The translations under genes and the position numbers were made by a program. Shown piece by piece: positions 1,875 to 38,483 of a stretch of DNA of 64,000 bases (position 1 is its first letter; every line of letters starts with the position of its first letter). The stretch is from the NCBI GenBank assembly GCA_965204745.1, contig OZ242010.1, positions 2,144,001-2,208,000 of the forward strand, given 5' to 3'. The notes beneath the pieces were generated by a model. That model was not told the DNA's origin. It saw only the letters and a program-made list of their open reading frames with translations, and made no database searches. The DNA comes from Candidatus Latescibacterota bacterium. GTDB taxonomy: Bacteria > Latescibacterota > UBA2968.

Positions 1875-1887
1875 CGAGGAGATCGGA

Positions 1888-2298: not shown

Positions 2299-2304
2299 GC
2301 CCTC

Positions 2305-5529: not shown

Positions 5530-7332
5530 ATGAGACTCCTCCACTACCTCGAGATCGAAAACTTCAAGCGTTTCGGCGACAAGCAGCGCATTGAGTTGGA
5601 TCATCCCGCGGTCCTCATCGGTCCGAACAACTGCGGCAAAACCACCGCAATCCAAGCGATCTCGCTCTGGTCGCAGGCGGTCAAAACGTGGTTTGCCAGC
5701 AAGGGCCAGGCCCCTCCCAAACAGCGGACATCCACTTCGCTCAACCGCCTCAACATCGTCTCGGTGCCAGTGGGACGCACCCGCGAATTTTGGCATAATC
5801 TGGCCGTGCGTACCGGCAACCAAAATATCGCGCTGCGGATCACGCTCGGGGTTTTGCACCAGAACAACATCGCGCCGGTCACGATGTGCTTTCGCAACCA
5901 AGGCGACGATTTGGTGTATTGCACACCGGCCCCGGAAACCCTTGCACGGCCCGAAATCATCGCGGCAGCAACGCGATTCAACGTCGAGTTGCTCTATCCC
6001 ATGTCCGGACTCGAAACCGAAGAACCCATCCTGCAACGCGGACGCATTGACGTGCTCATGGGACAGGGACAGACCGCGCAGGTGCTGCGCAACCTGTGTT
6101 TGATGGTCTGGAAGCACGCGCCCGAGGATTGGCAACGGATCACCGAGTTGATAAAACGCCTCTTTGCGGTCCAACTCGGCGCCCCCAAGGAAAACGCACG
6201 CGGCAGCATTGACCTCCACTACCGGCAAGCCGAGGTGCGAGAGCCATTGGACATCGCGCTCGCCGGACGCGGGTTACAGCAAATGTTGCTGATTTTCGCC
6301 TACCTGTATTCGCATCGCGGCAGCGTCCTCCTCATCGACGAGCCTGACGCCCACCTAGAGATCCTGCGGCAACAACAGGTGTATGTGTTGTTGCGCGAAA
6401 TCGCCACGCAAAACGAGTCGCAGGTCGTCATGGTCACTCACTCGGAGGTGATCCTCGAGGAAGCCTTGGAAAGCAATCTCACCCTGTTATTGGAAGGAAA
6501 GGCCGACAACCTCGCCGCAAAAAGATCGGACATTCGCAACGCCCTCAAGTACTATGGGGCCGGCCACTACCTCCGCGCACGGCAACGGGGCTATGTGCTC
6601 TATGTGGAGGGCCGCACCGATCTCGATATCCTGCGCGTGTTGGCAAAACGGCTAGGGCACGCGGTGGAGCGTGCTTGGGACGAGCGGATGAACGCCTTTT
6701 ACGTGCGAGACAACTTCCCAGATGTAAATCTCGACTCGGAACTCGAGCGCGTTGCCGGAGGCTTTGGCACGTCGCCAAAGCAACATTTTTTTGCATTGCG
6801 TGCTATGGTGCCCAAACTCAGCGGACTGGCTATCCTCGACAACGATGGCAGGCAGCGGCATGACTCGACAGACGGCGGCCTCCAGATTTCCTACTGGCGG
6901 CGTTACGAGATCGAAAACTACTTTGTCACGCCCGCGGTCCTAAAAACTTATGCGATCCAGGCTTACCGCGACTTGCCCCTCTTCAACCAGTTCCAGAGCG
7001 AAATTGATGAAGTCCTCGACGGCCTGATTTTGCAGCGCGTCTTCGCCGGACACACCGCGGACTATGCCACCTATCGGGGACTCGCTGCCGACGCGGCCCG
7101 CCTCGTGTGGGAAGCCCGCACCGAGCGGCAAAAGCTCGGCGACTTCGCCGAGGAGTTTTTTCGCCGCCTTGGCCACCGGCTAGGCCACCCGATGTTGCTA
7201 CGCAAATCAGAGTTGCATCGCCTTGTCCATTTTGTCGATCCGCAGGACATACCTGAAGAAGTCACGCAGAAGCTCGACCTGCTCGCGTCCCTCTTCGCCT
7301 CGGTGCAACCGAGTGAGGAAACGCGGGTGTGA
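5530..7332 (+). CDS. OLD-like ABC ATPase fused to TOPRIM-like domain (putative defence nuclease)
   Basis: IENFKRF, Walker A GPNNCGKT, Walker B LLIDEPDAHL, H-loop VTHS, TOPRIM-like YVEGRTD and ILDND, EIENY. Confidence 0.75.
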   Translation: MRLLHYLEIENFKRFGDKQRIELDHPAVLIGPNNCGKTTAIQAISLWSQAVKTWFASKGQAPPKQRTSTSLNRLNIVSVPVGRTREFWHNLAVRTGNQNIALRITLGVLHQNNIAPVTMCFRNQGDDLVYCTPAPETLARPEIIAAATRFNVELLYPMSGLETEEPILQRGRIDVLMGQGQTAQVLRNLCLMVWKHAPEDWQRITELIKRLFAVQLGAPKENARGSIDLHYRQAEVREPLDIALAGRGLQQMLLIFAYLYSHRGSVLLIDEPDAHLEILRQQQVYVLLREIATQNESQVVMVTHSEVILEEALESNLTLLLEGKADNLAAKRSDIRNALKYYGAGHYLRARQRGYVLYVEGRTDLDILRVLAKRLGHAVERAWDERMNAFYVRDNFPDVNLDSELERVAGGFGTSPKQHFFALRAMVPKLSGLAILDNDGRQRHDSTDGGLQISYWRRYEIENYFVTPAVLKTYAIQAYRDLPLFNQFQSEIDEVLDGLILQRVFAGHTADYATYRGLAADAARLVWEARTERQKLGDFAEEFFRRLGHRLGHPMLLRKSELHRLVHFVDPQDIPEEVTQKLDLLASLFASVQPSEETRV

Positions 7333-21782: not shown

Positions 21783-24700
21783 TCACTGAAATCCAATCTC
21801 GCCCCAGAGTCGGAAGTCCCAGGTCACGTTGGTCAGGCCCTCGCGGAGTTGGTCGATGCGCCGTTCATGGCGGAACGTGGTGCCGCCCGTGAAGCGCGAG
21901 CTAAAAGCGTATTGCGTGCCTAGGGTGACGGACCATGACTCGGTGTTCTGGCGGATGATGGGTTCTGGGATCACGTCTGGCGTTGCGCTGCGCGGGATTT
22001 CGGTCTGCGTGTTTATGGTGCGCGAAAAGGAGAGGTTGAGTTCCAAGTTGCTCTGCAATCTGCCCTGAAGCGAGTAGCGCGCGTCCGCTTGCAGGGTGCT
22101 GTTTTTCGTGAGGGTGGTGCTGATGAGGCGGTCCGCGAGTGAGGGCGGGGCAACCGTTTCGTCCGCGATGACATTGCGCTGGTACCGAATGTCATCGGTT
22201 TGGGTTTGGCGACTGCTCAAGGTCGTGTTCACGCCGCCTTTCCAGCGCGCGCTCCATTGAAAGAGCGGGTTGAAGCCGGTTTCTTTGGCGTCGCTGGTGA
22301 TGAACTGCTCGCCGAGGCTCAGCGCGCCATCCCCGCGCCGGATGCGCGATTCTTGGTAGCCAAAATTGGCATTGGAACTGACCCACAACCAGCGGAGGAT
22401 GGGCACGCGCTCGAGGCCGCGCCAACTCATATCGACTTTGGGAAAAATGATTTGATCGTCTTTGCCGAGGGTGCTGCCGCGCTGTTCGTTTTGGGAATAC
22501 GTGGCAGAGGTGTTGAGATTCAGGCCCAAGGGCAGGCGAACCCCGCTAGATGCCTGCGCTTGACTGCGAATGGTTTTCGCATTGACCCGGGTGCCCGCGC
22601 CCGTGGTGACAGAGGGGACATCGATGGTATCTGTAAAGCCGAATTGGTAGGCCAATGACGGGCGGGCCGTAAGCCCAAACAGGTTGTTCGACGTGTTGCG
22701 GGAAATGCTGCTCGTCACGTTTTGAAGCCTCGTGCCGGCTCTGCCGATCCAGCGCAAGATGGAAAACCCGTTGCCGGGTCTGCGCGCCATGCCTTGAAAC
22801 AGGCCGGGCAGGTTGAAGTTGACGCGCGCTTGTGCGGTTTGCGTGCTCGTGGCGGAAAGCCCGCGCCGAATGTTGCCGTGTTGCACGCGCTCCCCGCCGA
22901 GTTCAAAGCGGTCGTTGTAATTGGCCGAGTACGAGGGGTTGATCGAGAGCCAGTTGGAGAGGCGGGGCGTGAACCGGAAATTGATCGTCTGCGTGCGCGA
23001 TGTTTCGCGGCCAAATTGGAGTTGGGTCAGGGCGTAGCCATTGCGTAGATCGCGGTCGATGTTGAGCGAGTAATCCGCGGTGAGGCTGCGAAAGGGCGCG
23101 AATTTGATGGCGTAATTTTCGCTTAAGTTGAAGGTCTCGCGCACCGTGTCGATCACGTTTGACGTATCGTTCGCCACAGCGCGAAACGAGGTTTCATCCG
23201 ACACGCCGCGATTGAAGCGCAGGTTGTAGTTGAGGCTGGTGGGCAAGAAAAAGAACTGCGCTTCTTTGAGGGGTTTGTAAAAGGGAACCCACTTAAAAAT
23301 CGCAATGGATTTGCGCTGGGACCACGCCTGATTGTAGGTCAAGTTGCCGTTGAGGTTCTGGTTCTGGCTTTGCCTGCGCTGCGTGATCGCGCCGGTGGTC
23401 GAGGCGTCTGAACTGTAGTTGAGCGACGTGGAGGCTTTGTCGAACAAGATGCGCGACAGCAAGCTCGGGTCTTCGCGTGCGGGCCGTTTGCGGAGCGAAA
23501 TGGTAAAGCGCGTCTGCGAGCGGATGTCGCTTTCATTGGCCTTTTGTTCTGGGGTGAGCACGATGTCAGAGCCCGGGCGGATGCGCGGGCTGGACGAGAA
23601 CCGGTTGTAGCTGAAGCGCGCCGGGATAGAGGCGTTCCACTCGGCGGGGAGGAATTTGTCGAGGTTGATCTGGCTGTCGAAGTTGAAGCGCGTGGTGGTG
23701 TTGCCCGAGGCATTGCCTTGCAGGTCTTGAAAATCCCCGCTCCTGCGCTCAAGGTTGACCGTCAAATTGCCCAAGTCCGCAAGGGTCATGCGCGTGTCCG
23801 CAAGGGCGGACAAGGCGGACTTTTTGCGGATGTTATCCACGTGCAATTCGTTGAGCCAAATTTCGTTTTTGCCCATCAAGAGGCGGTCGCCCAAGTTGCG
23901 AATGCCCACGGTGAACGCGCTGATCGAGGAGAGTGCGGGATTGCCGCGCACGATGTAGGCGCGCCCGTCGACGTCTAGCTCGATGCGATTGCCCGGTTGG
24001 TCGTAGCGCGCGAGGAACTCGCCCTGACGCAGGGCCACGCGCACGGTATCGGATTCGCGCCCGGCGGTTTGGAGGTCGAGCAGTTGGCCCTTGAGTTGCG
24101 ACATGAGCTCGAGGTCGATCTGCACGGTGTTGATTTCTTCCGCCCACCCGCGATAGATCCGAGAGCGGTATTCGTAGTAGTTGAGGGTGTCGGCACTGAT
24201 GGGCGAGAATTGCATAAAAAATTCAATGGGACTGGGGCCTGCGCTCAGGGTATCCGCAGGGTCGGGGAAATTGGCGTCATAGGTGGGGGAGGAGGGATTG
24301 CCCCCGTGGATGTACAACTTCATCGTGCCGTAATTGGTGTAATTTCCGGCGTTGCCGGGCAAGACGCGGGACGCAGAGATGGCTTCGCCTGGGTGTAGAT
24401 CGACAAATTCGAGGACCATGGAATTTTCCGACAAGCGAATGCCGGTGGTGGGGTCGATTTCGCGCTCGAGGTCCGCAGGGGATTCGTAAAAGGAATTGTC
24501 TGTGCCAATGGTCGAGATCTGAAAATCGCCGGACAACTGGCCGAAGGGCACGGGATTTTCCTGCCATGAACTGCCGGTGGTGGCCATGGTATAAATTTCG
24601 ACGGTGGTGGTGTCGCCGTGTTCGAGCCACAGCCGCGCAAAGCCAATCGCGCTGGTAAAGGTGGTGTCAGGAGTGCCCTCAAACGCGCGGGGCGCGTCTT

Positions 24701-27700
24701 GCCCCTTGAGGGGAATCCGCAACAGGCGCCACGGCGGGTTGGAGATGCCGCGCAATTCCGGAAACAGGTCGGATTCGGTGCCGGGCACGAGCAGGGACGG
24801 GCCGGTAAACGCGCCGGTTTCCGGGGACAGGCCCCGGTCCGTGCTCAAATCTATGCTGTACCGGATAAAACTCTCGCGCTGGTCGAGAAACCCATTGCTG
24901 TTGAGGTCTTCGGTATCCGGGCGCGATTGCCGCTCGGTGCGGTTGTCCTCGGTGCCATTGATGCCGGGGGGATAGCGGATGAAGTGGTCGGTGGTGTTTT
25001 GGTCGATGTCTTGAAAATTGTCGCCCGACGGGTCGTCTGGCACGGTGACGCCTGGGAAGATTTTTTGAAAGACCTCGGCTTCCTCGGCGTCTGTGAGCCC
25101 ATCGAGGCCCGTGTCTTCTTCCTCGACGACGATGTCGTCGCCGGTGGGCAAGCCGCCGATGGGTTTGTCCTCGGTGCGAAAGCCGCGCGGGAACCGGTCG
25201 CGGTCGTCCGGGTCGTTGTGCGTGGGGTGATCCAGGGGCAGGGCGACCCGCTCGGAGATGTCGCCCAAGTCGATGTGCAACAGGCCCTTGTCGCCCCGAA
25301 TCCAGAGCTCGATGAATTTGTCCCGCAACAAGTCGGAGCGGTTGATATAGCGCGTAATGCCGGCCCACGAGCGTTGGGGAATGCCGGATTGGGCGTTGCG
25401 CGTGCGCGTGGGAAATCCATTGCTGCGCGCGGGTTCAAAGCGCAGTTTGAAAATATCCACGATGTCTTGCTCTGCGGTGATGTCGTCTCGGGTGGGCTGG
25501 ATTTGCGAGAGGGAGGCGCGGTCCCTGTCGATGGGGTTGTACCAAGTCAGGCGGCCCTGTGGCAAGGCGAGCGGCAGGGCATTGCGCGTCGGCGTGCTCG
25601 CGCGCGTCCACCCCAGTTTGCCGATGGAGAACCGCTTGCTACTCAAGGAGGCTTCAAAGTCGTCGATGTAAGCGATGTTTTTCGTGTTGGGGTTTGGCAG
25701 GCTTTGCGCGACTTCCATGTCGATGTCGATAGAGGACGGGGTTTGCGTGTTCACCAATGGGATGGAGTTGACCAACGAGGTCAAGAACTGCGGCTGCATG
25801 CGGAACCGCGCATTGGCATCCCACAAGATCGTGCGCGCGGGTTCTTGCCCGACCCGCACGCGGTGATCAGGCGCGCTCTGGTTGCTGTAAAGCACGGTCA
25901 TGCCGATGAGGGAATACTGGTCTTCAAAGGGCCGCTCAAAGCGAAAGCCCACCAGGCTTTTGGATTGCGACAAGCCGCCGAATACGTCTTGGTTTTGGTA
26001 CGAGATGTCGAGATCAGCGGTGGGGTCAGAGGCTTCGTTTTCCGCGTCTCCGATGAATTTCAACCGGCCGAGGGTGTAGTTGATCGTATAGTCTTTGTCG
26101 CGCTCGAGGGTGCGGTTGTTCAGGCGCACGACTTCGCTGTTTTCGATCAGCCCGATGCCCAGGGTAAATTCGGTTGCGCGGCTCGACGAGCGCACGCGGA
26201 TCACGTAGCGCCCGGCTTCGCTGCGGTTGGTGGAATTGGTTTCCGTGTAGATGGCGGGCACGCGCACTTCGAGATCTGGCGCGCCCAAGCCCTCTTCGCC
26301 AAACGGCTCGAGAAAGGGAAAGACGAGATGGCCTCGGGCGAGGAGGAGACCGGGGATTTCATTGCCCGTGCCGATGTCGATTCTCTGATCCGGGGGCGAG
26401 GATTCGGAAGCTCCATTGGCGTGTCGGTCGAGGCCGAAAATTTGCAGGTACGGATTGCCCTCTTGGTTGTCCTGCGGATTCTCGCCGGCCACGATGCGGA
26501 CGATGCCCACGTTCAAGCCGATGGGGTCGATGTTGCGCCCGCCGAGATAATAGACATTGCGCCATGAGAGATTCCACGTCGGATCCGAGGGGCGTTGTTG
26601 CCGGGCTTTGATGAGCTTGAGGCGGATTTTTTTGTCCGGATTGCCCGGCTCTGGAATGAATTGGATGTCGCCAACAATCGCGCCGGCCGCGGTTTGATAC
26701 GCGACTGCGAGGGTGTATCCCTCCGAGACCCGGCCGCGTTCATGGATGAGATAGCCTTCGGGCAGGACCGTAAATTCAGACGGGGCGAGTTCGTGAAACG
26801 TGCCTTCTTCCACGCCCTTGTCAAAGCGGCGCGACCCGGCTTCGTCGGGCGATCCATTGTTCCAAGACACGTAAGCCACGCCGGGAATGGCCGAGTCTTC
26901 GAGGTCGTTTTGCGCGTTAAAATCATTGAGGAACACGCGCACGCTTTGCACGTTGACGCGGGCATTTGGCGCGGGCAGGATGCCGATGCGGAAGTTTTCC
27001 CGGTAAATTTCGTCCAAAAAAAAGTACGTGTTTTGAAGATACTGGTGATCGGGGATTTCCTGAGCCGATTCCTCGGTCTGACCCGTAAAGGTTTTGCGGT
27101 CGGACGAGGCTTTGTCTTGCGACGTGACGAGCGTAAAATTGACCGCGCCGACCCTGCCGCGCGTTTTGATGCCAAACAGGCCGCCCCTGTTGCCGCCGCT
27201 AAAGCCGATTAAGCGCGTGCCGGGCAAGGAGAGCGACGTGCTACCGGCTTCGATAGATTCGATGATGCCGTCTTCGTCGCCTTTGTATTGCAGGCGCAGA
27301 CCATCGGTCAAGTTAAAGTCCTGCGCGCTGTTTTGTTCGAGAGAAACCGTGATGCGGTCGCCGATAGTGCCTTCGACCGTGAGGTGGGCGTCTTGTTCAA
27401 AATTGATGGTGGGAAAGCGCGAGGTGTGCGCGGTGACAGCTTGCGCTTCGCCCAAGGTGTACTGCGAGACGCCCGACAATTCGATGCGGCGGCGGCCCCG
27501 AATGATGAGATTGGTTTCCCCCTCGCCGGTGATCGCACTCAGGCGTTTGGGCACGCGAAACGGGATTTTGACGTCGATCAAGCCCTCGCCCTCGTCGTCG
27601 CTCGTCACCTTGCTGCCCAAGCGTTCTCGGGCGAGGCGATGGGCGTCATTGTGGAATTTGTAGCGCGCAAATTCGCCCAAGCCGATGATGACGGGCATGC

Positions 27701-27986
27701 CATAAGGCGCGCCGCCCAAGTCGCGGAAGACCATCAGGCGGAACGGGGCTTCTGGTTCCAACAGTTGCACGGTGGGCTTGGTATAGGCGCGTCTGCGGGG
27801 AAAATACGGCGCGGCTTGCGGATCGTCGCGCAAAAACACCTCGAGGGTTGACGCGCCGAGTTGCGGACGCAGGCCCGGCGTCGCAAACGCCACGCACGGA
27901 TAGAGCAACGCGAGACAGAACAAAACGCCGACCACTGAGAGGTGAGAGGTGAGACGCGAGAGGTGAGAGGCGGATGAACAAAGCAT
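21783..27986 (-). CDS. sprA: SprA/Sov-like large outer-membrane protein (type IX secretion translocon homologue); start uncertain
   Basis: ~2070 aa; [71 protein letters not shown]; beta-barrel-like C-terminus ending in aromatic residue. Confidence 0.8.
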
Positions 27987-27999
27987 GATAGCACGAGCC

Positions 28000-28160
28000 A
28001 GAGGTGAGAGGTGAGATGGGATTTTAGCCACAAAAGGCACAAAAGGCACAAAAGGCACGAGCGGGGTACAATTGGCGACAGCCAGTTCAAAGGCGAGCGA
28101 TATGTGTAGGGGATGCCCCCGTGCTCGCCCAAAGATACAAGAGGTAAGAAGTGAGACGCG
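28000..28160 (+). repeat. composite interspersed repeat copy (upstream of sprA)
   Basis: Same modules as 21600-21775. Confidence 0.85.
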
Positions 28161-28685
28161 AGAGGTGAGAAGTGAATGAACAACGCAACATGATAGCACG
28201 AGCCACATGAAAGAGCAAGGGAAAATCCGCCAAAAACAGCGAAAGCCAAACGACGCAAGGCGCGTCTTTTTTTTGAAAAATAAAATCGTATATTTGGATG
28301 GACGAATGGGCGAATTGACGAACCCCGACCACCGAGTGAAAGGCGAGACGCGAGAGGACTACCCCGCTGTCCAACCCCCCGCGCACGTCGGCGATTCGGC
28401 TATTCGTCGCTTCCTTGAACTTCTCTCTTTTTTAAAGGTTCCGCATGCGCTTGCGTCGGTACGTGTTGAGCGAATTGGCGATGCCATTCGGCCGCGCAAT
28501 GGCCTGGAACGATGTGCTACCTCCGGCTTGGGGCGCGTGGGCCGCAAACGCGATTTTCAGCGCGACTGGCCTTGCTCTGTTGCTGACGACGCGAAAATGA
28601 AAAAGCCCCATCGGAAATCGCTTGCGCGACTCGGATGGGGCGTTGGTTTGATGCGTCAAAACGAAGTGCAACCGCGCTTATCCTT
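28161..28685 (+). pseudogene. duplicated, internally deleted copy of the lptFG locus (upstream region + lptF 5' end fused to lptG 3' end)
   Basis: 28161-28488 matches 34793-35098; 28488-28685 matches 37260-37457. Confidence 0.9.
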
Positions 28686-28714: not shown

Positions 28715-30445
28715 CTACGCCACCTCGACGACTTCCTCGCCCAGCATATCCACGAGTTTCACCGCCACTTTCGCGTCGGCGCGGGGCAATGTTAGCGCGT
28801 ACTCGCCTTTGATGAGATCGGTCTTCTTTTTTGGAATATCGCTTTCCGCGATGTCGAAATACCTGCCATTGTAATCCGTATCGATGAGCACGCAGTCGAT
28901 CTGCACTCGAAAGTCGTCGATCTGTTCGTTAAAAATCGTCCTGTCGATTTCCATTCTCGCGAGGATAGAGGGGCTGATGTAGTCGATAATTTTGACCGTC
29001 GCCTTTTTGCCTGTTATGGCGATTTGCACATCCGCCTCTGCGGGCTGATTGGTGATCACGCCATCCCGCTGGATGTCGCAGACGGCGATTTTATTGATCG
29101 GGCTTTTCTCTTGGGCGAGTTCGGCGATGATGCCCATTTCAGAGCCGTTGCAAAAAACGGCGATATCCCGGGTTTCATCTGGGCGATTGTGGGCAATTTC
29201 GTCCTTGATGATCTGAATATCCAGCCGGTTCAAGGGCCTGTGCAGGTCGATGATTTTCGCCAATTTGCCGCCGACTATGCCGTCGAAAAACAGATCGCCG
29301 TTGTCCTTTTGGATGCCGTACTTGGAGATGATAATTTTCTCGAGTCCGTTCTGCGCGACAAAGTCGTAGTTGTTCACCCGATAGTGAATGAAGCCGCGGC
29401 CGTTCTCTATCAAGTCGCCGTTCTTCTCGTCGATGACGCCTTGTAACCGCTTGATCGTGGTTTGAATCGCCCCCTTGTTCAGGTCCGCCACAATCCAGCG
29501 GCGGCCCAATTTTTCGGCCACTGCGGCGGTGGTACCGCTGCCGCAAAAGCAATCGAGGACGATAGAGCCTTTGTCGCTCGACGCTTTGATGACGCGCTCC
29601 AACAGGGCTTCGGGTTTTTGCGTGGGAAAGTCGAGAAGTTCGGCACGCCACGCAGATACATTTGACATATCAATCCACCATGATTCTGGAACTTTGCCTT
29701 CCTCGTGTCTGGCGAGTTGGGAGCTTTTATCATATTCCGCATCCCCAATTGTTCGTACCTCTGTAAAATCCGCCTTGTACGGTATGCGTATGTCATCGGG
29801 ATTAAAAATAGCCCTGTCGTTATTCTTTTTATATCGCAGAATATTGTCGTGTTTTTTGGGAAAATTTTGGGGCGACGGCCCAGGAAACGTATAACACCAA
29901 ATAATCTCGTTGCCGAAATTTTCCGCTCCAAATACCTCGTCCAGCAAAAAGCGCAAGTGATGGCTTTTGTGCCAGTCGCAGTGCAGGTAAATACTCCCTT
30001 GTTCGCTCAACAATTCCCGCATTAAAATCAGCCGCTCGTACATAAACTGCAAATAATTGTCATTCGCCCAAATATCCTCGTACTGCGTCTGTTCGACGGC
30101 CGTATGTCCATCGCCTTTGAGCATTTTGGATTGCCCGCGCAACCTGACTTTGCGGACGTAATCCGCGGCGGAATCAAACGGCGGGTCGATATAAATGAGA
30201 TCGACCTTGCCCCTGAACCCAGCGATCAAAAGGGAAGACAGAATTTCCTTGTTATCGCCGTGAAAAAGCAAATTGTGCCCGCTTTCCACAAACGCATCGT
30301 AGGACGGCTCGGCGGGCGGATTTTCAACGCCCAAGGTCTCGCACAACTGCGCCGGGAAATGCTGTACTGTATCCAGCGGCTTCTTGCCGACCCAGTGGAG
30401 CATTGGGCGGCCTTTGACCGGGGTGATTTTGAGGGATCGGTTCAT
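28715..30445 (-). CDS. type III-like restriction-modification methyltransferase (Mod, N6-adenine)
   Basis: [49 protein letters not shown]. Confidence 0.9.
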
Positions 30446-30452
30446 TTGATTT

Positions 30453-30917
30453 TCACCTACAAATGGCAAAAAAGATGATGAGCGCGAGATAAAGAAGGGC
30501 AAAGATAATGGGAAGAAAGGTCTCGACAACCGTGAGTTTCCAGTAGCGTCTTGTCTTCGGTCTTTCTTTTTCTTCCATTCCCAACAACTCCCATTCCCGC
30601 TTAAAAAAGGGATAGGCGAGTTTTTCTTCCAACTCATGAAGAGCGGCAAACTTTCCCGAATTGAGTTGGCGATAGGATCGGATAATGATATACCATGCTG
30701 CGGAAAGAAAAATCCCAAAAATACTAACGGCGGTCAAAATTGCACCGACAGGCATGGTCTCGGTGCCGTATCTAAGAAATGCAACGAGAAAAATTAAAGT
30801 GCCCGTCAGCAGACTTACGAAAAGCCGATTTGCTCCCTCGCGCCTCTGACTCACCCTATCCGCGAGTTCGGCATGGAGTTTATAGATTTCCAAAAGTTCC
30901 TGTCTATTCTCGTCCAT
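30453..30917 (-). CDS. 154-aa membrane protein, 3 predicted TM helices (candidate pore effector)
   Basis: [42 protein letters not shown], three hydrophobic segments; start overlaps the TIR stop (TAATG). Confidence 0.8.
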
Positions 30918-31333
30918 TAGGTCAACCCCCTTATCGCCGAGACAATGCTTTCGGTGTTCCAACCAACAATGCGGTCGGCATTGTTTTTTACGATTTGAGA
31001 TGTCTTCCTACTTCCCCATGGCTCTATGGCTATGATTGGTTTTGCAACCCCAAACCCTTCTCTCGCTATTTCTATTTCTTTCTTAATCCACTTACTGTAG
31101 GTTGCATAAACCCCTGCCAAGATGAGTACCACACCACAAGGTTGCATTTTCCGACGAATAGCCTCATATAGTTGTCTATCAGTCCCTACTGCATGAATCG
31201 GGTCGTCTTTAGGCACCGAATAGTCTTTGAAAAAAAAATATGGTCTTGCTTCTAACAAATCTATTAGATTTTCATAACTGTCCGAATATGCCCAAGAATG
31301 ACTGATAAATAGATTGCGGATTCTCATTCTCAT
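30917..31333 (-). CDS. TIR-domain protein, ThsB/MTH538 (DUF1863) type, copy 1
   Basis: LFISHSW, DYSVPKDDP, WIKKEIEIA (catalytic Glu position), KPIIAIEPWG, VGWNTESIVSAI. Confidence 0.88.
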   Translation of the reverse strand: MRMRIRNLFISHSWAYSDSYENLIDLLEARPYFFFKDYSVPKDDPIHAVGTDRQLYEAIRRKMQPCGVVLILAGVYATYSKWIKKEIEIAREGFGVAKPIIAIEPWGSRKTSQIVKNNADRIVGWNTESIVSAIRGLT

Positions 31334-31421
31334 ATTTCCCTCCTCACTGTGGGTTTATCCAACTCAGCAATTGGCTCAATTTCCGCCTCATATAACGTAT
31401 TCACACCCGAAAGTCAACAAC

Positions 31422-31658
31422 TTATCCAAGCTGTGATTGGCTCGATTTCCGCCGCCATTCCAGCGATGTTTTTTCAAGTTCGAGTGCCGTATATTTATCG
31501 CCGTATTCCCTGAGTGACCCGGCCCAATTCTGCCGCAATGTAGGAGTGGCTTTAGGCCCCCGTTCTTCTGCGAGCAACTCGACCAATTCCAGTACCTCGC
31601 ACTGCTTGTCCGCGGGCAGTTTATGCAATTTTTTGACGATAATTTCTTCAACGGTCAT
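31422..31658 (-). CDS. DUF2281-like antitoxin (orphan)
   Basis: KLPADKQCEVLELVELL...LRQNWAGSL pattern; C-terminus runs into a repeat. Confidence 0.65.
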   Translation of the reverse strand: MTVEEIIVKKLHKLPADKQCEVLELVELLAEERGPKATPTLRQNWAGSLREYGDKYTALELEKTSLEWRRKSSQSQLG

Positions 31659-31715
31659 GTCTTACCTCGCATTTAGAATCCCGAGTTGCCGCCCTCGCGT
31701 GACTTACCTCGTCCG

Positions 31716-32120
31716 CTACGCCAACTCCCTTATCGCCGAGACAATGCTTTCGGTGTTCCACTTAACGACTTGGTCGGCATTATCCCGCACCGCCGGAGAA
31801 ATTTCATTTGTCCATGGCCGGATGGCGAGAATAGGTTTTGGTTTTGAAAAGCCACTTTTGGCAATTTTGATTTCCTTGTCTATCCACTTGCTGTATTCGG
31901 CGTACACACCCGCCAAAACGATGACGATACCGCACGGTTGCATTTGATTGTGAATCGCTCTGGACAATTCTTTATCGCTACTGCTATGCACGGGGTCATT
32001 TTTTGGGATAGAGTAGTTGTGATAATGAAAATTTTTGGCTTGCTCCAACAGATTGACCAAGTTGTTATATTGGTCAGCGTGTGTCCAAGAGTGGCTGATG
32101 AACAAATGATAGGGTTTCAT
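31716..32120 (-). CDS. TIR-domain protein, ThsB/MTH538 (DUF1863) type, copy 2
   Basis: LFISHSW, NYSIPKNDP, WIDKEIKIA, KPILAIRPW, VKWNTESIVSAI. Confidence 0.88.
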   Translation of the reverse strand: MKPYHLFISHSWTHADQYNNLVNLLEQAKNFHYHNYSIPKNDPVHSSSDKELSRAIHNQMQPCGIVIVLAGVYAEYSKWIDKEIKIAKSGFSKPKPILAIRPWTNEISPAVRDNADQVVKWNTESIVSAIRELA

Positions 32121-32130
32121 ATTTCCCTCC

Positions 32131-34716
32131 TCACTGTGGGTTTATCCAAGCCGTGATTGGCTCGATTTCCGCCGCGCTTATCGCAGCCGTTGAAGCATAG
32201 ACGACGTGGTATCGAAACTTATCGGGTTGCATCTTTTGCAACCGCTCAACTGCCTTTTGTTTTGCCGCCACTGTCTTGTCGCCGCGCTCGTGCTCGGCTT
32301 TGACCTCGACGATGTAAAACTCGCCCGTCTTCTTCACGATCACAAAGTCGGGAAAGTAACGGTGGTACCGCTCGTCCTCGCCCAGGTACTCAAAGTAAAA
32401 ATCGGTCTTCTTGGGATCGGTCAGGCCGCCCGTGAACAGGAACGCTTTCACATCGTCGGGATCCGTATTGAGCACGGATAAAATTTGCCGAAAGAAAGCG
32501 CGTTCCGGCTCGCTGTCAAAATTGTACGGCGTGTAGTGAAAGCTCAAATCGCGCCCGTCTGCATACTCCTCGCGGTCAGCAGACAGACCCCCGGCCTGTA
32601 TTCGGTCATACGTCTGCTTGAGCAAGCGCAAACGATGGACAAAAACGCCGTTTTCGTCCCGTTCAAAAACATCCTTTCCCGCCTCGTCCCGAACCCGAAT
32701 CAGCGCCAGTGCCTCCGTGACCTGTTCTTCAACGGTCTCGTAATTCGCCTGTTGATCTTCGACCTGCTGAAACAGGCCGTACAAGTGGCTATTCGGCATT
32801 TCGCCCCGTGGATACAAGTCGTTGAGCCGCTTCAAAATCGGCATCATTAACAGGTGGTAGCGCGAGGCGATTTTGTACGCGGCGGCGTGGCAATCTGTCG
32901 TTTCCGCTGCGGCTGGCAGTTCCTCAGTTTTGCCAGTGGGCATCAGCACTTCCCGCGGCCCGCTGAAATCCGGGGTTAGAATGCTGTGCAAAATTCCGGG
33001 GGCTTTTTGCGGTCTCGGCTTATCCAACGCGATCTCGTCGCGCGGTGCTTCGGCGCGGATGGCGCGCTTGACCGTTCGGGTAATCTCCAATGTCGGCAGT
33101 TCTGGTTTGACGATCCGCAGTGTCACGGTCTCTTTGTCACTCGTTCCCGCGCTGAGCAGGTCGAGGTCCGTGCGGAAGTTGTCTTTCAGTTCCTTATCCA
33201 AAATCATCGCATTGCCGTAATCGAGAAAAATTTTTGCCGGATGCCGGTTGCCCGGCACCTGCCGCAAACACCGAGTCGCCGCTTGCAGGACGTAATTGTT
33301 GCTCCTCGTCTGTTCTTTGATGAGCGCGCAGGCAAACAGGCTCGGGCAGTTCCAGCCTTCCACGCCCTTGCCGATCAGCAAAATGACCCGCTTTTGGGTG
33401 GTGGGATTGTTGAGCCGCTTGAACTCGTCGAGCTCGGATGCTTTTGATCGTTGCGTATTGACCAAGATCTGAGAGACGCTTTCGCCAACGCTCGTCATGG
33501 CCTGCTCGATCAAGTGCCGGGATTGGTCCAAGTGCTCCTGCGTCTTGAAGTAAAACGCGATTTTTGCCTTTGATCCGTCCGGCAACGCCACAGGGCCGTA
33601 GTTGCTGAAAAACTCATGGATGATGTCCTTGAAAACATCCCCATCCGACTGCCCTTGGAGGTCGTATTGGTGGATCCCGTTTTGGAGGTCTTTTAGGATA
33701 TTGTCCTGAATGCCATCGCCAAGCCCATACCAAACGAGGACTTCTTTCAGGTGTTGTTTTTTGTAATACGGCGTCCCGGTCGTGTTGATCACCGCGACGA
33801 TAGGGGTTTTCTCGTGGATGTAATTAATCGTCTCGCGCACCCGCTTCAGTTTGTCAAACGTGTTGCCATACGTGTGATGCGCTTCGTCTGAAAAGATGCC
33901 GAGGTTGGGCAAGCTGGCGATTTTTTGCAGCCTGAGATTGGCTTGCAACGCCCTTTCCCGAAACGCGAGGGCTTTCTGATTGCTCCGCCTTCTCGCCCGC
34001 AGACTGATTTTTTCCGTGTTGGTAACGATCAAGTTGTAACTGCTGCCCGTTTGAGCCTGTATGTCCTTTTCTCTGCCCGGGTATTCGATCTTCAAATTGG
34101 CGAGAAAATCGCGGTTGAGGTCGGGCGGCAAAACTTTCTGGTATGGCATACCACCGAGTTCGCGCAGGCTTTCGATAATCGTGGTGCCGGGCGCGAAGAC
34201 CAGGGCGTTTTTCATAAAATTGCCGTCGGGATAACGCAGGGACATCGCAAACTCGGTAGCGACAATCGCGCCGATCAACACGGTCTTGCCGGCCCCCATC
34301 GCCAGCGCGAGGATATAACTCGGATAGTCCAAAATCGCCGCTTCGTGCAACGCCTGAATTTTGAGGCTTTTGACCCAGTCCGAATCGCTTTTGACCTCCT
34401 CGAGCACGCCCTCTATTGTCGCCCACTCCAAAGCGTCTTTTGAGATCGGAATGCCGAGCGCGTCGAAAAGCGTTTTTTTGTCCGCGTAGTAATGCTTGTA
34501 CAGATCGATGACGTGGGGCGTTTGCAGTTTGAGGCGCACATACCAATACACCTCGAGCGCGAGGAATTGAGGCTCGCGCAAAAACTCGAGGGCTGGGCTA
34601 TCCGCCGCCATCTGATAGGCGAGGATTTCGCCGATGAGCGGATGCTCGCGACAAGCATATCCACCCTCGCGCCATTCGAGAGCGGATCGTTTTAGGTCTT
34701 CGTAAAGGATCGGCAT
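32131..34716 (-). CDS. type III-like restriction subunit (Res): SF2 helicase + PD-(D/E)xK nuclease
   Basis: LAMGAGKT, FSDEAHH, EGWNCP, QAATRCLR, YFPDFVI...IVEVKA. Confidence 0.88.
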   Translation of the reverse strand: MPILYEDLKRSALEWREGGYACREHPLIGEILAYQMAADSPALEFLREPQFLALEVYWYVRLKLQTPHVIDLYKHYYADKKTLFDALGIPISKDALEWATIEGVLEEVKSDSDWVKSLKIQALHEAAILDYPSYILALAMGAGKTVLIGAIVATEFAMSLRYPDGNFMKNALVFAPGTTIIESLRELGGMPYQKVLPPDLNRDFLANLKIEYPGREKDIQAQTGSSYNLIVTNTEKISLRARRRSNQKALAFRERALQANLRLQKIASLPNLGIFSDEAHHTYGNTFDKLKRVRETINYIHEKTPIVAVINTTGTPYYKKQHLKEVLVWYGLGDGIQDNILKDLQNGIHQYDLQGQSDGDVFKDIIHEFFSNYGPVALPDGSKAKIAFYFKTQEHLDQSRHLIEQAMTSVGESVSQILVNTQRSKASELDEFKRLNNPTTQKRVILLIGKGVEGWNCPSLFACALIKEQTRSNNYVLQAATRCLRQVPGNRHPAKIFLDYGNAMILDKELKDNFRTDLDLLSAGTSDKETVTLRIVKPELPTLEITRTVKRAIRAEAPRDEIALDKPRPQKAPGILHSILTPDFSGPREVLMPTGKTEELPAAAETTDCHAAAYKIASRYHLLMMPILKRLNDLYPRGEMPNSHLYGLFQQVEDQQANYETVEEQVTEALALIRVRDEAGKDVFERDENGVFVHRLRLLKQTYDRIQAGGLSADREEYADGRDLSFHYTPYNFDSEPERAFFRQILSVLNTDPDDVKAFLFTGGLTDPKKTDFYFEYLGEDERYHRYFPDFVIVKKTGEFYIVEVKAEHERGDKTVAAKQKAVERLQKMQPDKFRYHVVYASTAAISAAEIEPITAWINPQ

Positions 34717-35054
34717 CGATCTGACTCCAAGTCCTTAGAGGCTATCTTAAAATTATCGGGACCTACTCCCCTGGGGCCCCTTCCTCACAGGAAGAGGTGA
34801 GAAGTGAATGAACAACGCAACATGATAGCACGAGCCACATGAAAGAGCAAGGGAAAATCCGCCAAAACCGCGAAAGCCAAACGACGCAAGGCGCGTCTTT
34901 TTTTTTGACAATAAAATCGTATATTTGACGAATGGGCGAATTGACGAACCCCGACCACCGAGTGAAAGGCGAGACGCGAGAGGACTGCCCCGCTGTCCAA
35001 CCCCCCGCGCACTTCGTCGCTTCCTTGAACTTCTCTCTTTTTTAAAGGTTCCGC

Positions 35055-36308
35055 ATGCACTTGCGTCGGTACGTGTTGAGCGAATTGGCGATGCCATTTT
35101 TGCTCGGGTTTTCCGCGATCATTTTTTTGCTGATCATCGATCTCGTTCTGCAAATGCTCGACCGCATTTTGGGCAAGGGCGTGCCCGTGCGCGTGGTCGC
35201 AGAGTTGTTTTTTTTGAATACCGCGTGGATGATCGCCCTCGCCGTGCCCATGGCGGTTTTGGTGAGCGCGTTGTTGGGATTTGGCCGCTTGAGTGCGTCG
35301 GGCGAGATCGCGGGCATGCGCGCCTTGGGCATCGGGGTTCACCAAGTCGTCGCGCCCGTGCTACTCGTCGCCGCGTTGATGGGGGTTGGACTGGTGATTT
35401 TTAATGACCGCGTGTTGCCCGAATTTAATCACCGTGCACGCGCGTTGATGATGGATATTCACCGCAAACGCCCGGCCATCGCGCTGGTGGATAAGGCCGG
35501 CGTGGTGATAGGCGATTTTGAGGATTACCGAATTTTGTTCGACCGCGCCCGGGGCGATGTGCTCTACGACGTGCTGGTGTACAGCTTTGCCCGAGAGGGG
35601 TTCCCCGAGACTGCGGTTGCGGATTCGGGCATGGTCGCGTTTGACGACGCGCGAGACGAGGCCCTGCTCTATTTGTTCGATGGGGAGATGCACCGCATCG
35701 ACCCGGACGATCCCGGGGTGTACGCACTGACGACCTTTGCCAAGGCGCGTTTGCGATTGGGAGAGGCGGGGAACCAGTTGTCGCGGTCTTCGTCCGCGTA
35801 TCGCAATGACCGGGAAATGGATATCGCCACGATGCGGAGGCAAATTGCGGAGTACGAGCGCGAAATCGCCCAAGCACGGGCCGAGGCCGCCGCGTTGATG
35901 GATGCGGTTGCGCGGGAAGTGTTCCTCGATTCCACGGCTTCGATGCAGGCGTTGCAGGGCCGCGTCGCAGCGGATCTGCGGATTGCGCGCCACAAGCAAC
36001 GGGCCGCGGACCGGCTGCGCGTGGAGGTCCACAAGAAGTTTTCGATTCCCGCGGCGTGTGTGGCTTTTGTGTTGGTGGGCGCGCCTATCGGCGTGTGGGC
36101 ACGCAGCAGTAGCGCGGCAATAGGCGCGGGGATCAGCGTGGGGTTTTTCTTGGCGTGGTGGATTTTTCTCATCGCCGGGGAAAAATTGGCGGACCGCGGC
36201 GTGCTCATGCCCTGGTTGGCGATGTGGATGCCCAATGTGCTGACGCTGATCGTCGGCGCGGTTTTGTCCGCGCGGATCATCGGCGAGTGGGGCAAAAAAA
36301 GGAGATAG
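35055..36308 (+). CDS. lptF: LPS export ABC permease LptF
   Basis: LRRYVLSEL, AVPMAVL, GRLSASGEIAGMRALG, EVHKKFSIP, AMWMPN. Confidence 0.88.
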   Translation: MHLRRYVLSELAMPFLLGFSAIIFLLIIDLVLQMLDRILGKGVPVRVVAELFFLNTAWMIALAVPMAVLVSALLGFGRLSASGEIAGMRALGIGVHQVVAPVLLVAALMGVGLVIFNDRVLPEFNHRARALMMDIHRKRPAIALVDKAGVVIGDFEDYRILFDRARGDVLYDVLVYSFAREGFPETAVADSGMVAFDDARDEALLYLFDGEMHRIDPDDPGVYALTTFAKARLRLGEAGNQLSRSSSAYRNDREMDIATMRRQIAEYEREIAQARAEAAALMDAVAREVFLDSTASMQALQGRVAADLRIARHKQRAADRLRVEVHKKFSIPAACVAFVLVGAPIGVWARSSSAAIGAGISVGFFLAWWIFLIAGEKLADRGVLMPWLAMWMPNVLTLIVGAVLSARIIGEWGKKRR

Positions 36309-36310
36309 GC

Positions 36311-37372
36311 GTGCGGATGATGAGTCGCTATGTGGTCGTGCAATTCGCCGTGCCCTTTGGGATCAGCGTGCTGGCCTTTGCCGTCGTTTTCGTGGTGATC
36401 GATTTGGTGGATCGGCTCAGCGCGTTTTTGGACCGCGCCGTGGGCATCGGCGCGATAGTCTCGTACTATCTCTGCTATTTGCCCCATATCATCGTTTTGG
36501 TGATGCCCATGGCGGTCTTGCTCGCCGGGCTGTTTTGCATGGGCGGGTTGATCCAGCGCGGGGAATTGCTGGCGATGAAAGCGGCCGGCATCAGCCTGTA
36601 TCAGGTGGTGATCCCGCTGCAAGTGCTGGCGCTGGGGATCGGCGTTTTGGCCGCTGTGATGACCGATCAGGTGTTGCCGCGGGCGAACCGGGCGCGGGCG
36701 AAGATCGAGCAACCGCGCCGATCAGGCTTCGCCCCGATTCGCGTGCAAATCGCGCTACGCGATACGGCCGGGCGCGTGTTTTCAATGGGGGAATACGACG
36801 CCATAGCCATGCGAGGCAAACGGGTCGTGCTCGACAGGTACGAAGGCGGGATGCTCAAAGAGCGCGTGCGCGCCGAGGATGCGATTTGGGCGGCTACGGA
36901 ATGGCATTTTATGGACGGGGACAGGCGCGTGTTTGGCGAGCGGGAATCGTATCGCGCGTTTCGGTTGTGGATACCGAGAGAGGTGACGCTGACGCCCGAG
37001 GATTTTGCGCGCGATGTGGTGCCCGAGGATCAGATGACGTATCGGGAACTGACCGAGTTTATCCGCCGCAAGACGCGCAATGGCAGCCAAGCCCTGCGAG
37101 AGTCGGTGGCGCGCCACATGCGCTTGGCTTTTCCATTCGCCAATTTTGTCATCGGCTTGTTCGGCCTGCCGATGGCGTCTCGCATGCGCCGCACGGGCCG
37201 CCCCATTCAAATTGGCATGTGCTTGCTGATCTGCTTTGCGTTTTACGGGTGCATTCAACTCGGCCGCGCAATGGCCTGGAACGATGTGCTACCTCCGGCT
37301 TGGGGCGCGTGGGCCGCAAACGCGATTTTCAGCGCGACTGGCCTTGCCCTGCTGCTGACGACGCGAAAATGA
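36311..37372 (+). CDS. lptG: LPS export ABC permease LptG
   Basis: SRYVV, GELLAMKAAGISL, RLAFPFAN, GAWAAN; follows lptF. Confidence 0.88.
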   Translation: MRMMSRYVVVQFAVPFGISVLAFAVVFVVIDLVDRLSAFLDRAVGIGAIVSYYLCYLPHIIVLVMPMAVLLAGLFCMGGLIQRGELLAMKAAGISLYQVVIPLQVLALGIGVLAAVMTDQVLPRANRARAKIEQPRRSGFAPIRVQIALRDTAGRVFSMGEYDAIAMRGKRVVLDRYEGGMLKERVRAEDAIWAATEWHFMDGDRRVFGERESYRAFRLWIPREVTLTPEDFARDVVPEDQMTYRELTEFIRRKTRNGSQALRESVARHMRLAFPFANFVIGLFGLPMASRMRRTGRPIQIGMCLLICFAFYGCIQLGRAMAWNDVLPPAWGAWAANAIFSATGLALLLTTRK

Positions 37373-37559
37373 AAAAGCCCCATCGGAAATCGCTTGCGCG
37401 ACTCGGATGGGGCGTTGGTTTGATGCGTCAAAACGAAGTGCAACCGCGCTTATCCTTGGTGGTTAGGGCGCGGAGGGAAAATCACTTGACAAGGCGAGAG
37501 GGAGTGCGGATTATTTATTTTCTTCCGCAAGTCGTTCAAACGATCTCAGGAGGTTCCCC

Positions 37560-38483
37560 ATGGCAGAATACGATACAATTTCCAAACAGTTGATTCGCAT
37601 CTACCCGCAAGACCTCGTCCGCTTGGCACTCGGACGCGAGGATGTCGAAATTGAAGAAGTTCTCGACACCGAACTCCCGAGGATTGAAACGCGCATGGTC
37701 GATAGCGTGATTCGCGTGCGGATCGATGGCGAGGAAGCCTTGGTACACATCGAATTTCAAACCACCGACAGCGCGAATATGGCTCTTCGCATGGCGATCT
37801 ATATCCTCCGCCTCATCGAACGCTATGACCTGCCGGTCTATGCCTTTGTCATCTACCTGCGTCCCAATGCCGGGCGCCGCGATGAAGGATACTACATTCA
37901 AGAACTTCCCGGCCATCGCGTCTTTGTAGAATACGAGGTGCTTCGATTGACCGAGATAGACGGGCAAGGTATCCTCGAGGGTGGTCATCCGGGCTTGCTT
38001 CCTTTCGCGCCGTTGATGAAGCATCCTGTGGGGATGGGTTCCGAGGACTGGTTGCGCGAGTGTGTTCGCAGGAGCGATTCGGTTTCGTTGGATCAATCAG
38101 AAAAGGCTAATTATTTGAATAGCTTGGCGGTCTTGAGTGGGTTGGCTTATGATCTGCCCACTATCACGCGGATTCTTTCACAGGAGGGTTTTATGGACGC
38201 GATTATGCGTGACTCATCGTTTGCCCAGTACCTCAAGGAACAAGGCATTGAGCAGGGCATTGAGCAGGGCATTGAGCAGGGCATTGAGCAGGGCATTGAG
38301 CAGGGCATTCGAGAGAGCATCCGAGAAGCGTTGGAGATTCGCTTTGATGCGGATGTGGCCGGCCAGTTCGCTGATCGCATTGCGGCCATCGACGATTTGC
38401 AACGGCTCAAGCGGTTGCTTCGCTCGGCGATGCAAGTGGATGATCTGGAGGCCTTTCAGCGCGTGTTGGATGCGGAAGCCTGA
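37560..38483 (+). CDS. Rpn/YhgA-like recombination-promoting nuclease (PD-(D/E)xK)
   Basis: YDTISK, RMVDSV, VHIEFQT, MALRMAIY, (EQGI)6 C-terminal repeats. Confidence 0.85.
   Translation: MAEYDTISKQLIRIYPQDLVRLALGREDVEIEEVLDTELPRIETRMVDSVIRVRIDGEEALVHIEFQTTDSANMALRMAIYILRLIERYDLPVYAFVIYLRPNAGRRDEGYYIQELPGHRVFVEYEVLRLTEIDGQGILEGGHPGLLPFAPLMKHPVGMGSEDWLRECVRRSDSVSLDQSEKANYLNSLAVLSGLAYDLPTITRILSQEGFMDAIMRDSSFAQYLKEQGIEQGIEQGIEQGIEQGIEQGIRESIREALEIRFDADVAGQFADRIAAIDDLQRLKRLLRSAMQVDDLEAFQRVLDAEA
38193..38483 (+). CDS. candidate intragenic small protein (RpnS-like antitoxin)
   Basis: In-frame ATG preceded by AGGAGG at 38182-38187. Confidence 0.6.
   Translation: MDAIMRDSSFAQYLKEQGIEQGIEQGIEQGIEQGIEQGIRESIREALEIRFDADVAGQFADRIAAIDDLQRLKRLLRSAMQVDDLEAFQRVLDAEA
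38238..38309 (+). repeat. 12-bp tandem repeat x6 (GAGCAGGGCATT)
   Basis: Encodes EQGI x6. Confidence 0.95.

Follow-up and report, generated by a model that had tools for sequence, protein, structure and literature searches.

Organisation of the locus

A candidate defence module, pairing a minimal ThsB-type TIR protein with a small membrane protein of the Pfam 8xMP family, is encoded within a restriction-modification (R-M) operon of a Candidatus Latescibacterota bacterium (GenBank assembly GCA_965204745.1, contig OZ242010.1). The locus was analysed as part of a 64,000-nucleotide (nt) stretch covering positions 2,144,001 to 2,208,000 of the contig, which is referred to here as the window and whose own numbering is used below. 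Six genes are found in one run on the minus strand, in the order res, TIR2, DUF2281 gene, TIR1, 8xMP gene and mod (Table 1). The run had been proposed in an earlier reading of the nucleotide sequence (the original prediction), and all six genes are where the open reading frame (ORF) list places them. Nested between res and mod are two ThsB-type TIR genes and a gene for a protein with three transmembrane (TM) helices, which is translationally coupled to TIR1. The TAATG overlap and the 7-nt spacing on which the original prediction relied can be read directly from the sequence: the TAA stop codon of TIR1 (30919-30917) and the ATG of the 8xMP gene (30917-30915) have one base in common, while the spacer AAATCAA separates the TGA of the 8xMP gene (30455-30453) from the ATG of mod (30445). 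The DUF2281 gene and TIR1 are 88 nt apart. The core of the locus is probably a two-gene module of one minimal ThsB-type TIR and 8xMP, to which the window adds a paralogous TIR and a stray DUF2281 gene.

The GC content is 0.44-0.53 within the run and the island that contains it, compared to 0.58-0.62 in the flanks. Promoter-like and terminator-like motifs within the run are no commoner than in shuffled sequence, and a single operon is therefore neither supported nor refuted by them; the inserted genes are presumably co-transcribed with res and mod. A search for RNA sequencing runs containing the locus found none.

Table 1. Features of the window and gene arrangements at related loci (L numbers).
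Locus	Feature	Position	Strand	Description
Window	res, 861 aa	32131..34716	-	SF2 helicase-type restriction subunit, possible C-terminal PD-(D/E)xK nuclease
Window	TIR2, 134 aa	31716..32120	-	ThsB-type TIR with W79/E83
Window	DUF2281 gene, 78 aa	31422..31658	-	VapB-like orphan, no adjoining toxin gene
Window	TIR1, 138 aa	30917..31333	-	ThsB-type TIR with W82/E86
Window	8xMP-family membrane protein, 154 aa + stop	30453..30917	-	three TM helices, presumed effector
Window	mod, 576 aa	28715..30445	-	N6-adenine DNA methyltransferase, type III Mod kind
Window	island left border	28161..28685		chimera: lptF upstream/5' copy + lptG 3' end copy
Window	island right border repeat	34793..35098		original lptF upstream region + first codons
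L018	8xMP	5998-6450		intact, no adjoining TIR; directly after brxC
L030	8xMP	5995-6447		intact, no adjoining TIR; after minimal nucleotidyltransferase gene, before HmaB-like methylase
L121	8xMP	1423-1932		intact, no adjoining TIR; between res and mod
L150	8xMP	2228-2737		intact, no adjoining TIR; between res and mod
L149	gene order			res, then mod after 120 nt; no TIR, no 8xMP
L150/L121	gene order			res, 8xMP, mod
L146 (like L004)	gene order			res, TIR2-type TIR, DUF2281, 8xMP, mod
L147/L123 (like L006)	gene order			L146-type arrangement with insertion sequence (IS) interruption
L148 (like L081)	gene order			decayed copy
Window	gene order			res, TIR2, DUF2281, TIR1, 8xMP, mod; extra TIR1

The 8xMP membrane protein and its family

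The membrane protein is assigned by Pfam to PF24838, the 'Octameric membrane protein family (8xMP)', with an E-value of 1.4e-36 and a score of 125.7 bits against a cut-off of 30, the match spanning model positions 1-134 of 136. None of the searches pointed to the RipA-type family to which the original prediction had likened this protein. Hydropathy places hydrophobic segments at residues 32-50, 60-78 and 134-152. Residues 1-31 and 80-127 carry 18 Lys or Arg residues and the short outer loop at 51-58 carries none, a bias which places the N-terminal 31 residues and the 80-127 loop in the cytoplasm. Conservation within the family is highest in these soluble, Arg/Lys-rich parts, which comprise about 80 residues. 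Among members down to 33% identity, Y12 and W75 never vary and R25, R26, K89, E97 and E108 are at least 90% conserved, and the conserved residues fall mostly on the predicted cytoplasmic side. The claim that the protein lacks a ligand-binding domain holds as far as domain searches are concerned, but has to be set against these conserved cytoplasmic residues.

Homologues are numerous, with 1507 in a collection clustered at 90% identity and 2720 clusters at 50% identity (E <= 0.001), of which 1550 have E <= 1e-10, and almost every member stands alone as a protein of about 150 aa. A literature search yielded no paper about the family, no model in PADLOC-DB 2.0 or NCBIfam recognises it, and it has no sequence relative in the PDB. 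The AF2 monomer (pLDDT 72) consists of four long helices, for which Foldseek gave no PDB match at E <= 0.001 and VIA-align wide gave generic helical-hairpin matches only, the best having a Z of 9.2, below the level meaningful for helical bundles. In the protein atlas the nearest clusters are unnamed, and the best named one, PycTM (0.75), is at chance level. Relatives are absent from 2.9 million viral contigs, which argues that 8xMP is not a phage cargo gene. A complex prediction with two 8xMP chains and TIR1, each with its own alignment, scored 0.00 and gives no verdict either way.

The TIR proteins

Both TIR proteins match the ThsB family, TIR1 with E-values of 3.3e-15 (Pfam ThsB_TIR) and 1.3e-13 (PADLOC ThsB), and TIR2 with E-values of 8.3e-20 and 1.3e-9 in the same two collections, and they are 56% identical to one another. 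The AF2 model of TIR1 (pLDDT 86) was matched by Foldseek to MTH538 (E 4e-5), EcThsB (8wcf; TMq 0.65) and nucleoside deoxyribosyltransferase (NDT)-type folds, and on this model the protein has a TIR/NDT-like fold. The W...E motif is kept in both window proteins, as had been noted originally and as is confirmed by counting on the translations (Table 1). W82 and E86 (TIR1 numbering) are each conserved in 54 of the 56 TIRs compared, and 27 of them, selected by hand and aligned, all share the N-terminal SHSW motif, Y76, Y79, W82 and E86. The conserved Glu is taken here to be the catalytic residue, after the W..E motif of TIR NADases, and its retention in 54 of 56 proteins indicates that catalysis matters, rather than scaffolding alone.

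In a tree of 43 of the 56 sequences (those of 125-165 aa; 13 were dropped), TIR2 falls in a clade of six TIRs with 100/99 support, all of which adjoin res, while TIR1 clusters with TIRs from other contexts. TIR1 and TIR2 are identical over 33 nt that cover the ribosome-binding region and the start codon (31330-31362 and 32117-32149), and the final 34 nt of the DUF2281 gene (31422-31455) match the 3' end of res (32142-32175) at 97% identity, suggesting that the two-TIR arrangement arose recently, by duplication or by gene conversion. A partial tandem copy of 66 nt is also present at 31356-31389.

Linkage of TIR and 8xMP across genomes

A scan of one genome per species yielded 150 loci encoding relatives, of which the best 80 were retained and their neighbours counted by phmmer. 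The 8xMP relatives at these 80 loci are 54-86% identical to the window protein and derive from metagenome-assembled genomes (MAGs) titled Latescibacterota, Acidobacteriota, Poribacteria, Alpha- and Gammaproteobacteria, Chloroflexota and Cyanobacteria, among others, as well as Spirochaetia, Nitrospirales and Rhodothermales. A TIR gene lies immediately upstream of 8xMP on the same strand at 60 of the 80 loci. At one locus (L006) a DDE transposase sits between the two genes and at three more (L063, L065, L066) a C-terminal TIR remnant persists upstream. Every other gene is common to only a minority of the 80 loci. The linkage of TIR and 8xMP is far beyond chance, and the original prediction, which had named unlinked TM homologues as grounds for its own rejection, stands on this point. 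The TIR stop codon overlaps the 8xMP start codon at 36 of 48 measurable loci (by 4 nt at 22, by 1 nt at 13 and by 8 nt at one), and a gap of at most 15 nt separates the genes at eight further loci.

In more distant 8xMP subfamilies the linkage recurs, at a lower frequency. Matches to 8xMP above the cut-off are found in 25 of 401 genomes of the phylum to which locus L005 belongs, with a ThsB_TIR neighbour or fusion at six of the 25 loci, and in 18 of 151 genomes of the window's own phylum (three of 19 other genomes of the same genus), with a TIR at seven of the 18 loci, two of the seven being weak. More than one TIR accompanies a single 8xMP in the window and at L003 and L103.

The genome that contains the window has only one 8xMP gene. 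It also encodes a further TIR system at L113 (2693207-2696512), an overlapping same-strand set of a TIR_2 protein (215 aa), a SLOG cluster2 protein (292 aa, E 2.4e-69) and a ThsB_TIR protein (162 aa), and, at L116 (~229.6-230.6 kb), a pair of tandem TIR genes.

Domain fusions and the proposed function

Fifteen longer proteins containing 8xMP include four N-terminal TIR fusions, one fusion with RyR and one with dCache_3/HAMP, and 8xMP is C-terminal in all six. The TIR-8xMP fusions represent four or more lineages and are 24-63% identical to the window protein, and further ones occur at L103 and L091, while a DUF7701-8xMP fusion at L088:1471-2283 likewise has 8xMP at its C-terminus. The RyR and dCache_3/HAMP fusions are among P0276, P0277 and P0122; one protein of 859 aa has an AAA_21 ATPase after 8xMP. 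These RyR, dCache_3/HAMP, DUF7701 and AAA_21 architectures suggest that 8xMP serves as a general membrane output module for several kinds of sensor.

Taken at roughly even odds (a probability of about 0.5), the locus would encode a module of the Thoeris class that is carried in a type III-like R-M operon and has an oligomeric 8xMP membrane effector set off by TIR chemistry. This reading is favoured because the TIRs are of ThsB type with a constrained Glu, the membrane partner is coupled and constant, the fusions are output-like and several TIRs may accompany one effector, and because the module lies among defence genes, is patchily distributed and shows signs of horizontal transfer. Infection would activate one of the TIRs, which would cleave NAD+ by means of its conserved Glu (E86 in TIR1, E83 in TIR2). 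An ADP-ribose (ADPR)-derived product would act on the Arg/Lys-rich cytoplasmic face of the 8xMP oligomer, formed by helix 1-31 and the loop 80-127, and the oligomer would breach the inner membrane, so aborting the infection. The two TIRs would probably broaden the range of triggers for one effector. If this is correct, 8xMP would constitute a large effector family for TIR immune signalling, given its 2720 clusters at 50% identity, and its receptor would consist of about 80 conserved cytoplasmic residues without a known fold, a compact model for the reading of NAD-derived signals by membrane effectors.

Several observations weigh against a Thoeris-class module. The window TIRs are minimal proteins that lack any additional sensor domain, and the mean column identity (68% for TIR, 63% for 8xMP) is unusually high for a phage sensor-effector pair. 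Domain searches recognise no ligand-binding domain in the 8xMP protein, and no relationship with the named Thoeris membrane effectors could be detected (Pfam on 26 members; hhalign against one DUF2270 sequence). No TIR occurs within 1.5 kb of 8xMP at 19 of the 25 loci in the sampled phylum of L005 and 11 of the 18 loci in the window's phylum. The same is true of a Bacteroidota-type subfamily of 200-280 aa (L082, L084, L087, L094-L096, L104); PF24838, of which the window protein is a full-length member, is a heterogeneous family. Intact 8xMP genes without an adjoining TIR are also found in the same kinds of operon as the paired ones (L018, L030, L121/L150; Table 1), and such genes either have a partner other than a neighbouring TIR or reflect recent TIR losses. 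Finally, the TIR, HAMP and RyR fusions onto 8xMP fit coupling by contact at least as well as a diffusible signal.

In a contact-coupled complex, the TIR would dock on the cytoplasmic side of an 8xMP ring and gate it, or be gated by it, with no diffusible messenger and with NAD+ cleavage being local or secondary. The stop/start overlap at 36 of 48 loci suggests a fixed stoichiometry, natural N-terminal TIR-8xMP fusions recur in at least four lineages in addition to L103 and L091, the HAMP, RyR and DUF7701 fusions demonstrate that a cytoplasmic domain joined covalently to 8xMP can drive it, and TIR and 8xMP are conserved to a similarly high degree. Such a complex is nevertheless considered unlikely, if far from negligible, as a purely scaffolding TIR would have no need of the Glu that 54 of 56 TIRs retain and some operons encode two or three different TIRs for one 8xMP. 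Enzyme-effector fusions are moreover also known in signalling systems such as Pycsar.

The fusions likewise bear on the possibility that the roles are reversed, the TIR being an NAD+-depleting killer and 8xMP a membrane sensor or anchor which responds to envelope perturbation by releasing or assembling the TIR. Bacterial TIR domains deplete NAD+ as effectors in CBASS, Pycsar, pAgo and Avs, according to the main text of Yirmiya et al. (10.64898/2025.12.03.692087), and the conserved TIR Glu and the absence of a sensor domain in the minimal window TIRs would suit this role. The position of 8xMP, C-terminal to dCache_3/HAMP sensor/transducer domains and to RyR, is however that of an output, the TIRs match the ThsB family rather than effector-type TIR architectures, and several TIR paralogues per 8xMP fit variable sensors with a constant effector, all of which make the reversal improbable and leave a TIR-triggered 8xMP effector as the favoured interpretation.

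Insertion in R-M, BREX and Hma-like operons

The C-terminal part of the window's res family is found in six of the 151 genomes of the window's phylum, and their arrangements (Table 1) form a natural dissection series, from res-mod through res-8xMP-mod and res-TIR-8xMP-mod to the res-TIR-DUF2281-TIR-8xMP-mod order of the window. The TIR-8xMP module is an insert, since L149 has res and mod without TIR or 8xMP. The island at L148, in a genome from the same genus, has decayed, with res split in two, a truncated TIR, a frameshift in 8xMP and mod in fragments; L081 is similarly degraded.

Among the 80 retained loci, homologues of res (69-87% identical to that of the window) and/or mod (64-81% identical) flank the module at ten. 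Bacteriophage exclusion (BREX) genes flank it at another ten, in nine of which it lies between brxC and pglX, the order being brxB, brxC, sometimes HEC-01A, TIR, 8xMP and pglX. An SNF2 helicase and an HmaB-like methylase flank it at seven loci, and a type IIG or DrmMI-like enzyme is located directly upstream at three, so that type III-like R-M, BREX, Hma-like or type IIG neighbours are present at 30 of the 80 loci in total. The gene for the system methyltransferase starts at most 1.5 kb downstream of 8xMP at 20 of the 80. The window genome is extremely rich in methyltransferases (43 N6_N4_Mtase and 21 N6_Mtase matches in 5.48 Mb), and a gene placed at random there is estimated to have a methylase in such a position in about 1-2% of cases, a base rate that is higher because defence genes cluster. 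Mapped on the TIR tree, nesting requires at least one (R-M), two (BREX) and two (Hma) changes, indicating repeated recruitment into BREX and Hma-like operons. Intact 8xMP genes lacking a TIR are found in all three system types (BREX, Hma-like and type III-like R-M).

Embedded abortive or guard modules have precedents in PrrC, held in the EcoprrI type Ic R-M operon, and PARIS, found inside BREX loci. Like TIR-8xMP, these are suicide modules nested between subunit genes of a methylation-based system, although they use an anticodon nuclease (PrrC) or an ATPase/Toprim pair (PARIS) where the window module has a TIR and a membrane protein. With PrrC held by EcoprrI as its model, the module might be a guard which watches over Res/Mod (or BREX or Hma) and is set off once the host system has been disabled by an anti-restriction factor of a phage. 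Its presence inside operons belonging to three methylation systems that are unrelated, and in a fourth just behind the methylase (30 of 80 loci), the proximity of the downstream methyltransferase at 20 of 80 loci against a chance estimate of about 1-2%, the repeated recruitment on the TIR tree and the retention of intact TIR-less 8xMP in all three system types are in keeping with such a function. The remaining 50 of the 80 loci, however, show no such neighbour with the queries used, defence genes cluster in any case and operon junctions may tolerate inserts, the sampled genomes are rich in R-M genes, and the res-mod pair of L149 exists without the module, so that R-M does not need it. A guard of this kind therefore appears to be a long shot, and the recurrent nesting is no more than circumstantial evidence for the suggestion in the original prediction that the module backs up the R-M system against anti-restriction proteins.

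A broader variant would be a portable TIR-8xMP guard, recruited repeatedly to helicase/nuclease-methyltransferase junctions of unrelated systems, sensing the complexes or their inhibitors and, once a phage has overcome this first defence, killing the cell through a new octameric effector that reads a TIR product by way of a pocket made solely of its short cytoplasmic helices. This is a quite speculative and, on balance, doubtful proposal, under which 8xMP would be a new kind of receptor for NAD-derived signals. With the nesting in R-M, BREX and Hma-like operons, the old question of whether abortive modules embedded in restriction systems work independently, synergistically or as guards becomes directly testable.

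Comparison with known Thoeris systems

TIR systems with membrane effectors (types II, V and VII) and 29 putative effector types are described in the main text of the 2025 bioRxiv preprint of Yirmiya et al. (10.64898/2025.12.03.692087), to which the following comparison is limited. There, several TIRs per effector are usual in Thoeris, as stated for multi-ThsB islands, and positively charged inter-protomer pockets are proposed as signal sites in the 3-TM ThsF and the SLATT effector ThsH, a scheme that the mechanism favoured here parallels. The closest parallel to the module is type V Thoeris (ThsB and ThsF; DUF2270/PF10028), also a two-gene pairing of a TIR with a small membrane protein, in which ThsF, like 8xMP, spans the membrane with three helices and lacks a classical ligand-binding domain. 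ThsF was modelled as a ring of identical subunits bearing positively charged pockets, and type V acts by abortive infection, as is proposed for the module. The measured signal for ThsF is 3'cADPR (a cyclic ADPR, cADPR). The TIRs paired with 8xMP are shorter, at 134-138 aa. Neither the window protein nor any of 26 diverse 8xMP members matches PF10028 in Pfam, and hhalign gave a probability of 0.14% for 8xMP against one DUF2270 sequence (L112:1435-2127), the only one available for profile comparison because DUF2270 is rare in both phyla sampled (in none of 151 genomes of the window's phylum and one of 251 in that of L005).

Type VII Thoeris (ThsB and the SLATT protein ThsH, with canonical cADPR as its signal) resembles the module in pairing a TIR with a small membrane effector that is thought to oligomerise on receipt of the signal (Yirmiya et al.). 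None of the 26 8xMP members matches SLATT in Pfam at E-values up to 10, the two being set apart by sequence models only, and a PADLOC RTasSLATT match to 8xMP residues 26-80 (E 0.0057) is at chance level. In type II Thoeris (ThsB and Macro-TM, with His-ADPR), the TIR signal passes to a membrane-disrupting effector, as is proposed for the module, but the type II effector has a Macro domain as receptor (Yirmiya et al.) while 8xMP has no Macro match in Pfam. PMC13069673, as far as its available text extends, concerns Pycsar and type IV Thoeris, and the term TIR is absent from the main text of a comparative study of BREX (PMC12839542).

The original prediction had noted that SIR2, SLOG, Macro and caspase effectors are missing from the run, and indeed none of these models in Pfam, PADLOC and NCBIfam is matched by any of the six proteins. 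The named Thoeris effector families (SIR2-SLOG, Macro-TM, caspase-like, DUF2270, DUF6650, SLATT and CMP hydrolase) are likewise absent from the six window proteins and, by Pfam, from the 26 8xMP members. By its operon logic the module may be called Thoeris-like, with a predicted effector that matches no named type tested. The novelty claimed for the system is nevertheless uncertain, as 8xMP may be among types III and IX-XI or the 18 untested putative types of Yirmiya et al., which are named outside the main text of that study. The transfer of a signal from a TIR to a membrane effector is established, and the new elements here are 8xMP as a putative effector family and the repeated occurrence of the module within R-M, BREX and Hma-like operons.

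The res, mod and DUF2281 genes

The mod product is a beta-class N6-adenine methyltransferase of Mod type, as judged from its matches to Pfam N6_N4_Mtase (E 6.8e-49), PADLOC MTase_III (E 5.6e-67) and, in a PDB sequence search, the EcoP15I Mod chain 4zcf_A (E 7.7e-21) and a second Mod chain, 6k0w_B. For res, Pfam ResIII matches above its cut-off (E 2e-7), while a TnsA-like PD-(D/E)xK match at residues 780-834 is weak (18.4 bits, below the Pfam cut-off of 26.5 bits) and that to the NCBIfam BPTD_3080 restriction endonuclease (E 4.5e-12) is far below its cut-off. No PADLOC model, the REase models included, and no PDB sequence, that of EcoP15I Res included, matches res. The type III assignment of the original prediction is consequently secure for mod but not for res, and 'type III-like' is the safe label for the R-M operon.

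The DUF2281 protein matches Pfam PF10047 (E 4.3e-8) and, weakly and far below the cut-off, an NCBIfam VapB antitoxin model (E 0.0022). No toxin gene adjoins it in the window, the next gene being TIR1. Homologues occur at L004, L006 and L146; at L006 the gene is followed by an 82-aa ORF that appears PIN-like by eye and has no Pfam match. This VapB-like orphan within the module, the degraded copies at L081 and L148, where res, TIR, 8xMP and mod are all broken, and the many carriers that are symbiont-type MAGs would be compatible with a function other than antiviral defence: the pair might stabilise the island as an addiction or toxin-antitoxin-like cassette, contribute to symbiosis or be a passenger in decay. 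A role of this kind is very improbable, as neither gene of the pair is disrupted, conservation across phyla is strong, the module lies beside defence genes, its TIRs belong to the ThsB type and the 2.9 million viral contigs contain no relative, and an antiviral TIR-8xMP module remains the preferred interpretation.

Island borders and other features of the window

The island is bracketed beside an intact lptF-lptG pair (genes at 35055-36308 and 36155-37372, identified as LptF/LptG). In a repeat search its left border was found to be chimeric, with 28161-28488 matching 34793-35098 at 87-100% and 28481-28685 matching 37253-37457 at 98%, and this chimera implies direct repeats of about 330 nt around the island. 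The repeats may be the footprint of integration, or of a recombination able to excise the island. A minus-strand ORF of 2141 aa with a SprA_N (motility/secretion) domain (21783-28208) adjoins the left border. Beyond the right border, a 307-aa ORF without a Pfam match (37560-38483) contains six copies of a 12-nt tandem repeat, coding for (GIEQ)n, at 38226-38321. Among the DNA sequencing runs that contain the stretch are three with the label sponge metagenome, their word shares being 0.73-0.90.

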